2,270 nt of DNA from Escherichia coli (lineage in GTDB: Bacteria > Pseudomonadota > Gammaproteobacteria > Enterobacterales > Enterobacteriaceae): assembly GCF_003334255.1 (NCBI RefSeq), contig NZ_QOWU01000138.1, one strand, 5' to 3'. Every line of letters starts with the position of its first letter. Position 1 is the first letter of the stretch. The translations under genes and the position numbers were made by a program. Shown here piece by piece: positions 86 to 2,270 of the stretch. The notes under the pieces were generated by a model, which was given only the letters and a program-made list of their open reading frames with translations, did not search any database and had not been told where the DNA came from.

Positions 86-520
86 ATGGATAAACCTACA
101 GACTGGCGCTCCGGAACCCGCCGGATATTTTCTAATGAATTTAAACTTCATATGGTTGAACTGGCTTCGAAACCAAATGCCAATGTTGCACAACTGGCCC
201 GGGAACATGGCGTTGATAACAACCTGATTTTTAAATGGCTACGCCTCTGGCAAAGAGAAGGACGTATTTCTCGTAGAATGCCTCCAACTATTGTAGGCCC
301 TACAGTATCACAATCTTTTCCGGCCTCTCCGACTCTGGTTCCAGTGGAACTTATCGACACCCCGCGCTGTGCTACAGATGCTCCTGCTCCGGAGGCATTA
401 TCAGTTGCTTGTGCAGCTTCCTGCCATGTGGAATTCCATTACGGTAAAATGATGCTGGAAAATCCTTCACCAGAGCTGCTCACGGTGTTGATCCGTGAGC
501 TGACCGGGAGGGGACGATGA
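86..520 (+). CDS. tnpA: IS66-family TnpA (orf1): small helix-turn-helix transposase accessory protein
   Basis: The six-frame track gives ORF 83..520, but 83 is a TTG. The ATG at 86 has GGAG 8 nt upstream and is the preferred start, giving 144 aa. The N-terminal region (RRIFSNEFKLHMVELASKPNANVAQLAREHGVDNNLIFKWLRLWQREG) resembles the HTH 'transposase_8'-type domain of IS66 orf1 proteins. The stop TGA overlaps the tnpB start. Confidence 0.85.
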   Translation: MDKPTDWRSGTRRIFSNEFKLHMVELASKPNANVAQLAREHGVDNNLIFKWLRLWQREGRISRRMPPTIVGPTVSQSFPASPTLVPVELIDTPRCATDAPAPEALSVACAASCHVEFHYGKMMLENPSPELLTVLIRELTGRGR

Positions 521-867
521 TTTCACTCCCATCAGGTACCCGTATCTGGCTCGTTGCCGGCGTTACTGATATGCGTAAATCCTTCAACGGTCTGGGGGAG
601 CAGATACAGCATGTGCTGGATGATAACCCCTTCTCCGGTCACCTGTTTATCTTCCGTGGCCGACGGGGAGACATGATTAAAATCCTGTGGGCTGATGCTG
701 ATGGTCTGTGCCTGTTCACCAAACGCCTTGAGGAAGGTCAGTTTATCTGGCCTGCGGTGCGTGACGGTAAGATATCCATTACCCGCTCGCAACTGGCAAT
801 GCTCCTCGATAAGCTGGACTGGCGTCAGCCAAAAACATCCCGCCTTAACGCACTGACAATGTTGTAA
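517..867 (+). CDS. tnpB: IS66-family TnpB (IS66 Orf2-like protein), 116 aa; function in transposition not defined
   Basis: ATG at 517 overlaps the tnpA stop (ATGA at 517-520) and is preceded by GGGAGGGG at about 503-510. Size and sequence (IWLVAGVTDMRKSFNGLGEQIQ...GHLFIFRGRRGDMIKILWADADGLCLFTKRLE) are typical of IS66 Orf2 proteins. Stop TAA at 865-867. Confidence 0.88.
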   Translation: MISLPSGTRIWLVAGVTDMRKSFNGLGEQIQHVLDDNPFSGHLFIFRGRRGDMIKILWADADGLCLFTKRLEEGQFIWPAVRDGKISITRSQLAMLLDKLDWRQPKTSRLNALTML

Positions 868-890
868 AAAACTCCTGACCGCATTATAAA
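862..890 (+). promoter_or_regulatory. Candidate sigma70-like promoter in the tnpB-tnpC spacer (TTGTAA -17 bp- TATAAA)
   Basis: Seen in sequence: TTGTAA at 862-867 (overlapping the tnpB stop codon) and TATAAA at 885-890 with a 17-bp spacer. The predicted transcription start would fall at about 896-898, at the tnpC ATG. No experimental support; hexamer match only. Confidence 0.18.
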
Positions 891-897
891 AACGGCC

Positions 898-2270
898 ATG
901 AGTCAGAAATACCTCATTCGCATCGCTGAGCTGGAAAGGCTGCTCTCTGAGCAGGCTGAAGCCCTCCGTCAGAAAGACCAGCAACTGAGTCTGGTTGAAG
1001 AGACGGAGGCCTTCCTGCGCTCTGCACTGGCACGTGCCGAAGAAAAGATCGAAGAAGATGAACGGGAAATAGAGCATCTGCGGGCTCAGATAGAAAAACT
1101 GCGCCGGATGCTGTTCGGAACCCGTTCTGAAAAACTGCGTCGTGAGGTTGAACAGGCTGAAGCCCTGCTGAAACAACGCGAGCAGGAAAGCGATCGTTAC
1201 AGTGGGCGTGAGGATGACCCGCTGGTTCCCCGCCAGTTGCGACAGTCGCGCCATCGTCGTCCGTTACCGGCACATCTCCCCCGTGAAATATACCGCCTGG
1301 AGCCTGAAGAAAGCTGTTGCCCGGAGTGTGGCGGTGAGCTGGATTATCTGGGGGAAGTCAGCGCAGAACAACTGGAACTGGTGAGCAGCGCCCTGAAAGG
1401 GATCCGCACAGAACGGGTAAAAAAAGCCTGTACAAAATGTGACTGCATCGTTGAAGCACCGGCACCATCCCGTCCGATAGAGCGTGGTATCGCGGGCCCG
1501 GGGTTACTTGCCCGCGTGTTAACGGGAAAATACTGCGAACACCTGCCACTGTATCGTCAGAGTGAAATCTTTGCCCGCCAGGGTGTCGAACTGAGCCGTG
1601 CCTTACTCTCCAACTGGGTTGATGCGTGCTGCCAGTTAATGACTCCGCTGAATGATGCCCTGTACAGTTATGTGATGAACACCCGCAAGGTTCACACTGA
1701 TGACACACCAGTAAAAGTACTGGCACCGGGCAGGAAGAAGGCGAAAACAGGATATATCTGGACGTATGTCCGGGATGACCGAAATGCCGATTCGCCAGAA
1801 CCTCCGGCGGTCTGGTTCGCCTACTCACCGGACCATCAGGGTAAACATCCGGAGCAACACCTTCGTCCCTTCCGGGGTATCCTGCAGGCAGATGCGTTCG
1901 CAGGTTACGATCGGCTGTTCAGTGCCGAACGTGAAGGCGGCGCGTTGACGGAAGCAGGATGCTGGGCTCATGCGCGGCGCAAAATCCACGATGTATATAT
2001 CAGTACCAAAAGCGCGACGGCGGAAGAAGCACTGAAACTAATCGGCGAACTGTACGCCATTGAGCACGAAATACGCGGGTTGCCGGTGTCTGAACGCCTG
2101 GCGGTCAGGCAAATGCAGAGTAAACCGCTACTGACTTCCCTGTATAAGCTGATGCAGGAGAAAGAACACACGTTATCGAAAAAATGCCGTCTGAGAGATG
2201 CGTTCCGGTATATCAGGAAGCACTGGGTTGCGTTGTGCAACTTCTGTGATGACGGTCTGGCGGAGGCGGA
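898..2270 (+). CDS. tnpC: IS66-family TnpC DDE transposase, 3'-truncated by the window edge (457 codons present, no stop)
   Basis: Open frame from ATG 898 to the window end with no stop, which is why it is absent from the ORF track. Translation begins MSQKYLIRIAELERLLSEQAEALRQKDQQL... (heptad, Leu/Glu-rich coiled coil). It has Cys clusters CCPEC (1315-1329) and CTKCDC (1429-1446), candidate catalytic residues in HTDDTP (1699-1704), QADAFAGYD (1891-1911) and EAGCWAHARRK (1951-1980), matching the IS66 transposase DDE signature. The antisense ORFs across this span are shadows. Confidence 0.92.
   Translation, partial: MSQKYLIRIAELERLLSEQAEALRQKDQQLSLVEETEAFLRSALARAEEKIEEDEREIEHLRAQIEKLRRMLFGTRSEKLRREVEQAEALLKQREQESDRYSGREDDPLVPRQLRQSRHRRPLPAHLPREIYRLEPEESCCPECGGELDYLGEVSAEQLELVSSALKGIRTERVKKACTKCDCIVEAPAPSRPIERGIAGPGLLARVLTGKYCEHLPLYRQSEIFARQGVELSRALLSNWVDACCQLMTPLNDALYSYVMNTRKVHTDDTPVKVLAPGRKKAKTGYIWTYVRDDRNADSPEPPAVWFAYSPDHQGKHPEQHLRPFRGILQADAFAGYDRLFSAEREGGALTEAGCWAHARRKIHDVYISTKSATAEEALKLIGELYAIEHEIRGLPVSERLAVRQMQSKPLLTSLYKLMQEKEHTLSKKCRLRDAFRYIRKHWVALCNFCDDGLAEA

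Follow-up and report, generated by a model that had tools for sequence, protein, structure and literature searches.

Leaderless messenger RNAs (mRNAs) and promoters internal to insertion sequences (IS) are both already known as kinds. The classical leaderless mRNAs of Gram-negative bacteria, those of lambda cI (from PRM) and Tn1721 tetR, start on the A of an AUG codon, which is required, and carry no Shine–Dalgarno (SD) sequence; leaderless genes are uncommon in the Proteobacteria. In Actinobacteria and Deinococcus, a −10 motif 6–7 nucleotides (nt) before the start codon is a hallmark of leaderless genes. A further precedent concerns IS10 and IS50, in which fold-back inhibition of read-through transcripts was reportedly described by Davis, Simons and Kleckner in 1985 and by Krebs and Reznikoff in 1986. 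Here, we describe a 2,270-nt stretch of Escherichia coli DNA (hereafter the window, meaning the whole of that stretch), which matches, base for base, the left part of a copy of the IS66-family element ISEc43 on an E. coli plasmid. In this element, the transposase gene tnpC follows the accessory genes tnpA and tnpB, and we consider it likely that a constitutive promoter of its own drives tnpC, yielding a leaderless mRNA that starts at position A898.

The tnpC message predicted in this way resembles those of lambda cI and Tn1721 tetR in its start on the A of an AUG codon and its lack of an SD sequence, but those are repressor genes, whereas tnpC encodes a transposase and its arrangement is conserved across an IS family in several phyla. 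Like the leaderless genes of Actinobacteria and Deinococcus, IS66 tnpC genes have a TAnnnT box 6–7 nt before the start and no SD sequence, and differ from them in occurring mainly in Proteobacteria and being carried on a mobile element. As in IS10 and IS50, an inverted repeat in ISEc43 would straddle the element's own predicted start, and only transcripts initiated upstream could then hide the transposase initiation region. IS10 and IS50 hide both SD sequence and AUG, at the outer end of the element and against external promoters; in its predicted role, the ISEc43 hairpin, for which covariation is modest, would conceal the AUG of a leaderless gene and would also be directed against tnpA–tnpB transcripts of the element itself. 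Chromosomes as well as virulence and resistance plasmids carry IS66 elements in abundance, and the regulation of these elements is almost unstudied. In the searchable literature we found no description of IS66 tnpC expression, of a tnpC promoter or of a leaderless tnpC start, and an internal leaderless tnpC promoter is apparently an undescribed feature of IS66 regulation.

Promoter-like boxes at the tnpB–tnpC junction of ISEc43

A first-pass annotation of the window had proposed that two promoter-like hexamers at the tnpB–tnpC junction would give a leaderless tnpC transcript, with translation by re-initiation after tnpB as the alternative. The hexamers, their spacing and the start codon were confirmed in the sequence at each coordinate (all on the plus strand). 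The −35-like box TTGTAA (862..867), which matches TTGACA at four of six positions, is composed of the terminal tnpB sense codon (TTG) and the TAA stop. It is followed by a 17-nt spacer (868..884), whose central bases vary among close relatives, and by the −10-like box TATAAA (885..890), which matches TATAAT at five of six positions and misses the T at −7. The tnpC ATG (898–900) lies 7 nt past the −10-like box, is the first canonical start codon after the in-frame stop, coincides with the start annotated in RefSeq and leaves a tnpB–tnpC gap of 30 nt. From this geometry, the predicted transcription start is the A of the ATG (898), the eighth base after the −10-like box, which is preceded by a C and thus fits the preference for a pyrimidine at −1 and a purine at +1. 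The hexamers also fall within the separation of 16–18 nt associated with sigma-70 promoters, and the A at −11 is present.

The −10-like box occupies the loop of an inverted repeat, the 5′ arm of which, CCTGACCGC (874..882), pairs with the 3′ arm, ACGGCCATG (892..900), so that the latter includes the tnpC AUG. A predicted outer helix would join CTGAC (853..857) to GTCAG (902..906), the latter within tnpC codons 2–3.

That tnpC has no convincing SD sequence, as had also been claimed, was borne out. The bases upstream of the ATG (aaaaacggcc) contain no SD core and, in an ISEc23-type junction (L008) that is one base off the window (at 896; the window reads aaaaacggccATG), the 15 nt before the tnpC ATG showed no complementarity to the anti-SD sequence (duplex energy, +1.6 kcal/mol). 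The element itself provides the contrast, as tnpB is preceded by a strong SD sequence, GGGAGGGG (506..513), with an anti-SD duplex of −10.8 kcal/mol (computed on L008 and on L007, which have the same box). Both features expected of a leaderless mRNA, an AUG start and no SD sequence, are therefore present in ISEc43.

Thirteen distinct junctions from close enterobacterial relatives were aligned, comprising copies of ISEc43, ISEc23 and ISKox1, copies from Shigella, Klebsiella and Acerihabitans, and metagenome variants. Both boxes were invariant in all 13, with TTGTAAAAA and ATTATAA as the invariant blocks, and the bases between and after them varied. The metagenome variants came from a scan with CTGACAATGTTGTAA, which returned mostly chance matches and about a dozen real IS66 junctions, from which five new variants were aligned. 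One metagenome copy of the ISEc23 type (L174) has ATA in place of ATG at the tnpC start and intact upstream boxes, and on this evidence is probably an inactivated copy.

A mapped transcription start on the tnpC ATG of ISEc8

Experimental evidence bearing on this prediction comes from ISEc8 in E. coli O157:H7 EDL933, whose TnpB and TnpC are 64% and 61% identical, respectively, to those of ISEc43. Cappable-seq of EDL933 (Zehentner et al. 2023, PMC10469882, Table S5) yielded plus-strand, gene-specific starts at 346224 and 1275582 in two copies annotated 'IS66 family transposase ISEc8', in all eight growth conditions, with read scores of ~9–15 and no differential regulation; a bTSSfinder run by the same authors predicted a sigma-70 promoter with a −10 box, taaaat, for this start. 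The supplementary tables of that study use NZ_CP008957.1 coordinates, and the two ISEc8 tnpC coding sequences in NZ_CP008957.1 begin exactly at 346224 and 1275582. As the mapped starts are the first bases of the coding sequences, the primary ISEc8 transcript has the A of the ATG as its first base. We found no discussion of a leaderless ISEc8 tnpC start in PMC10469882, the term 'leaderless' having one unrelated match in the main text, and the correspondence appears to have been overlooked in these public start-site data.

The ISEc8 junction reads ATAAGCCCG-gTAAAATa-CGGGCTTATG, with the −10 box looped out in a 9-bp inverted repeat whose arms, ATAAGCCCG and CGGGCTTAT, are laid out as in the window. 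ISEc8 and ISEc43 thus share the tnpA/tnpB/tnpC organisation of the family, an inverted repeat that has the −10-like box in its loop and a 3′ arm running into the ATG, and the absence of an SD sequence. They differ in the spacer between tnpB and tnpC, which is 49 nt long in ISEc8 and 30 nt in ISEc43, and in the −10 box, which in ISEc8 (TAAAAT) retains the T at −7 and lies 8 nt before the ATG, whereas TATAAA of ISEc43 is 7 nt away from it. The −35 is poor in ISEc8 and better in ISEc43, where it overlaps the stop codon of tnpB.

The same start-site table contains a further plus-strand start in ISEc8, at 345610 inside tnpA, in stationary phase only (PMC10469882); in the rows of the table seen for the second ISEc8 copy, a start belonging to tnpA itself was not found. 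Start-site supplements for Shigella M90T and P. syringae DC3000 held no IS66 or ISPsy5 entries.

A recurring layout in distant IS66 lineages

To extend the comparison, 80 IS66-family loci were gathered through the TnpB profile (52–92% identity), and lineage statistics were computed on 34 representatives from the beta-, alpha- and gammaproteobacteria and the Acidobacteria. Across these ~34 lineages, the same layout recurs with different box sequences: a −35-like box, a spacer of ~17 nt, a TAnnnT box, 6–7 nt and the ATG. In Betaproteobacteria it takes the form TTGTAA, 17 nt, TAAACT, 6–7 nt, ATG, and tnpB invariably closes there, in GC-rich hosts, with the rare codon TTG and the stop TAA. Alphaproteobacteria have tnpB–tnpC spacers of 55–70 nt, in which GGATTC[AC]C[AG] is followed after 17 nt by TATAnT or TAAACT and after a further 5–7 nt by the ATG. 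Pseudomonas elements carry TTGCCA or CTGACC, 17–18 nt, TA[AG]CAT, 6 nt, ATG, and those of Acidobacteria [CG]ATACT, 6 nt, ATG. The positional equivalents of the −10 box in distant lineages are TAAACT, TATACT, TAACAT and TAAAAT, and most of the distant relatives, like ISEc8, carry the T at −7 that ISEc43 lacks. In two loci (L055 and L056), tnpB stops earlier, at a TGA, and TTGTAAAC (cTTGTAAAC) is nevertheless kept downstream, 17 nt from TAAACT; in another (L018), TTGTAAAC is present twice, and it is the second copy that stands 17 nt from the −10 box.

With the start set blindly as the first in-frame ATG, TANNNT was found 5–7 nt before it in 34 of 64 loci, compared with 1.5% of the 7,368 other ATGs that these loci contain and that served as background. 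The ATG-anchored promoter score exceeded the 95th percentile of its null in 28 of the 34 lineage representatives, and the best-scoring spacer was 17 nt in 24 of them. The −10 box most often lay 6 nt (in 16 lineages) or 7 nt (in nine) from the ATG, and a pyrimidine occupied −1 in 31 of 34 lineages, as preferred start sites would have. An SD core 4-mer was present upstream of tnpC in only three of the 34. In four loci (L045, L062, L066 and L072), tnpC seemingly begins with GTG, 6–7 nt past a −10-like box (in L045, TATAAT-gcgtgg-GTG), a layout that would imply leaderless GUG starts.

These comparisons bear directly on the alternative that tnpC is translated from the polycistronic mRNA only, with ribosomes ending at the tnpB stop (865–867) melting the hairpin ~7 nt further on and re-initiating at AUG 898, and with the hexamers as incidental sequence. 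Such a route would suit the short spacer (29–30 nt), whose length is conserved in the enterobacterial and betaproteobacterial groups, and the hairpin, whose 5′ arm is within reach of the terminating ribosome and whose 3′ arm holds the AUG. The element clearly uses coupling elsewhere, between tnpA and tnpB through their ATGA overlap. Elements of Cedecea and Hafnia (L011 and L014) also look coupled at the tnpB–tnpC junction: their spacer of 19 nt includes a G-rich SD sequence, the promoter-like match is marginal in L011 (score 8.3) and none was seen in L014, and some IS66 members therefore appear to use coupling. However, re-initiation leaves unexplained the invariant hairpin loop ATTATAA, the −35/−10 geometry in lineages with spacers of 50–100 nt and no SD sequence, where coupling is implausible, and the occurrence of TTGTAAAC outside coding sequence in L055, L056 and L018. 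The constitutive primary 5′ end on the ATG of ISEc8 is likewise contrary to pure re-initiation. As the sole route to TnpC, re-initiation thus appears unlikely, although it could operate alongside the promoter, possibly as an extra route in the subgroup with 30-nt spacers.

The invariant block could also be read in the other direction. On the minus strand, positions 883–888 give TATAAT, a perfect −10 box, and the invariant ATTATA might thereby initiate antisense transcription through the end of tnpB; constitutive antisense starts are found elsewhere in ISEc8 (L208), inside tnpC at 347115 (−) and just upstream of tnpA at 345430 (−) (PMC10469882). Yet the minus strand offers at best a poor −35 and scores 7.3 on the matrix, compared with 10.7 on the plus strand, and the minus-strand reading is lost in beta- and alphaproteobacterial lineages, where TAAACT becomes AGTTTA and TATACT becomes AGTATA. 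Moreover, no minus-strand start is listed between 345430 and 347115 in ISEc8, and hence none at its tnpB–tnpC junction. On these three grounds a conserved function for the minus-strand TATAAT was rejected, and we regard an antisense promoter as the explanation of the block as very improbable.

The inverted repeat around the −10-like box

Pairing between the arms of the inverted repeat extends over six of nine positions in ISEc43, the weakest version of a stem that has 7–10 pairs in relatives, and the fold of the ISEc43 junction was not significant (z = −1.19). Within the enterobacterial group, the arms are TGACCG/CGGTCA in ISEc23, TAACCGC/GCGGTTA in ISKox1 and ATGGCCG/CGGCCAT in the Shigella copy, and pairing often extends to CAU...AUG. 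Across the 13 enterobacterial sequences, 79% of cells in the inner helix were paired and two pairs had changed on both sides, giving a covariation score that was matched by 4 of 500 shuffles; we take this as modest support for the inner helix. In the outer helix, 91% of cells were paired, with zero compensatory changes. Counts of wobble cells (six G–U against eight A–C) did not discriminate between RNA and DNA, or between the two strands.

Family-wide, the 45 nt before the ATG folded better than shuffled sequences (mean z = −0.95, p = 4.5e-5), but pairing of the AUG itself was not enriched (0.52 compared with 0.48 in shuffles, p = 0.70), and masking of the AUG as a universal IS66 feature was accordingly not supported. 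In ISEc43, since the arms lie upstream of the predicted start at A898, the hairpin would be possible in read-through RNA only, and a fold-back mask over the AUG of such RNA is probably the most economical reading of it, by analogy with IS10 and IS50. It could alternatively serve to couple tnpC translation to tnpB termination.

The conservation of the junction might instead reflect a hairpin or a protein-binding repeat, such as an operator for TnpA, TnpB or TnpC, with the likeness to a promoter being coincidental in ISEc43. An inverted repeat flanks the box in many lineages, which together with the family-wide folding and the enterobacterial covariation would agree with a structural element, and the boxes are themselves contained in an 18-nt direct repeat (853–870 and 875–892; 13 of 18 positions matching) with a 22-nt period. 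Against an operator, the stems differ among close relatives and pairing is kept, which points to base-pairing rather than to a sequence-specific site. Against a structural element more generally, many betaproteobacterial copies retain the boxes but have either no such hairpin or a different one, AUG pairing lacks the family-wide enrichment, an Rfam search of the whole window gave zero matches and the ISEc8 start shows the equivalent box acting as a −10. This explanation consequently seems improbable as a replacement for the promoter, and a regulatory site that overlaps the promoter would be compatible with the promoter as the main explanation. In betaproteobacterial relatives, TTGTAAAC and CGTAAACT stand 23 nt apart and are likewise repeat-like.

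A proposed two-message model for ISEc43

Invariant boxes in close relatives, the geometry retained in distant ones and the ISEc8 start on the ATG together support the initial suggestion of a promoter in the tnpB–tnpC spacer that gives rise to a leaderless tnpC mRNA. In the mechanism we propose for ISEc43, a sigma-70-type promoter (TTGTAA-17-TATAAA) in the 30-nt gap would direct RNA polymerase to start at A898, and the element would produce two messages. The first would be a tnpA–tnpB mRNA from the left end, with translation that is SD-dependent and coupled through the ATGA overlap; the second, separate from it, would be the leaderless tnpC mRNA, whose 5′-terminal AUG ribosomes would bind directly. 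The tnpC promoter would act as a weak and constitutive supply of transposase. In RNA that reads through from tnpA–tnpB or from outside the element, the hairpin would pair the AUG and probably keep such RNA from yielding TnpC.

Several points weigh against this model. The sigma-70 weight matrix gave the pair the top score among 22,390 combinations of position and spacer on both strands of the window, but is approximate, with frequencies based on published compilations; a relaxed 9-of-12 scan found three sites in the window against 2.1 ± 1.5 expected, placing the pair no higher than chance. TTGTAA is partly under coding constraint (Leu and stop), and its invariance among close relatives is partly built in, because the pattern used to retrieve five of the 13 sequences itself included TTGTAA. 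The ISEc43 −10 box lacks the T at −7, among the two most conserved promoter positions, and its activity may be low. The mapped start belongs to ISEc8, with its 49-nt spacer, and is carried over to ISEc43 by homology at ~60% protein identity; Cappable-seq reads from identical ISEc8 copies also map to more than one copy. Finally, in three of the 34 lineages (L013, L022 and L074), the tnpC start was moved to the second ATG on the basis of N-terminal homology.

The significance of the pair stems from its conservation and position and not from the hexamers alone. ATTATAA is non-coding and formed no part of the selection pattern, yet is invariant in the 13 close relatives. An automated promoter scan of the window does not list the TTGTAA-17-TATAAA pair, an omission that follows from the lack of a T at position 6 of TATAAA. 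The missing T at −7 leads us to predict a weak promoter, and weak expression would suit a transposase gene.

Whether the arrangement extends to the family as a whole, so that in Proteobacteria and Acidobacteria an internal promoter on the start codon routinely uncouples a leaderless TnpC from TnpA and TnpB and an inverted repeat silences read-through, is in our estimation evenly balanced. If this family-wide reading is true, the two-transcript design would be a family-defining feature of IS66 regulation. If the transposase has a constitutive leaderless message of its own, the ratio of TnpC to TnpA and TnpB would be set by two separate promoters rather than by one operon, transposase output would track physiology that favours leaderless translation, and it would be wrong for annotation pipelines and expression constructs to presuppose an operon with SD sequences. 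It would also provide a clear and conserved leaderless gene in the Proteobacteria, where such genes are rare. The conservation across the family, alongside the ISEc8 start, makes the feature solid and testable.

Other features of the element

A match to the window was found in 3,312 of 5,426 complete E. coli genomes. RefSeq labels on an identical copy name a transposase-family accessory gene (tnpA), tnpB and an 'IS66-like element ISEc43 family transposase', and the gene order is that of the IS66 family, with tnpA, tnpB and tnpC consecutive, an ATGA overlap between the first two and tnpC shortly downstream. All three genes are supported by the list of open reading frames and by the RefSeq annotation, and lie on the plus strand. 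The IS66 accessory gene tnpA (86..520) ends in a stop codon that overlaps the tnpB start, and its product scored 68 bits against the NCBIfam IS66 TnpA profile, under the curated cut-off of 74. The accessory gene tnpB (517..867) encodes 116 amino acids, ending in Leu TTG and the stop TAA (865–867), and scored 119 bits against IS66_TnpB (cut-off 50). The IS66-family transposase gene tnpC begins at the ATG without an SD sequence described above and continues past the window end (898..2270); the protein scored 354 bits against transpos_IS66 (cut-off 180).

The window begins with GTAAGCGTAAAGCC, which we take to be the usual IS66 left end. IS66 elements are characterised by terminal inverted repeats that begin GTAAGCG and by an 8-bp target duplication; the right end of this copy lies beyond the window. 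Between the left inverted repeat and the start of tnpA, an exact 10-nt direct repeat, CTAAATTAGA, occurs at 46–55 and 63–72, with its copies 17 nt apart, and could bind a protein or belong to the promoter region of tnpA.

Two further readings of tnpC were considered and set aside. The tnpB stop and the tnpC ATG (865–900) are in one frame with ten sense codons between them, such that read-through would fuse TnpB to TnpC; expression by read-through of the stop codon was rejected, as this relation of frames is not conserved (the spacer of L007 is 29 nt). Some 200–240 nt into tnpC (window ~1093–1110), most loci have AAAACT (or CAAGCT) followed after 7 nt by an in-frame ATG, which was rejected as a promoter because it reflects the conserved peptide K-L-R-R-M.

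On the host plasmid NZ_CP060062.1 (L001 3822-5208), tnpC is annotated as incomplete, with its C-terminus missing, ~50 nt past the window end, and the gene for an IS110-family ISEc45 transposase lies ~250 nt beyond the truncated tnpC. Given the incomplete annotation and the proximity of the ISEc45 gene downstream, insertion of ISEc45 probably cut tnpC in this ISEc43 copy, which is probably non-autonomous. Two E. coli homologues of TnpB (P0001 and P0002) have 146 and 137 amino acids compared with the 116 encoded in the window, and may be extended or frameshifted variants.

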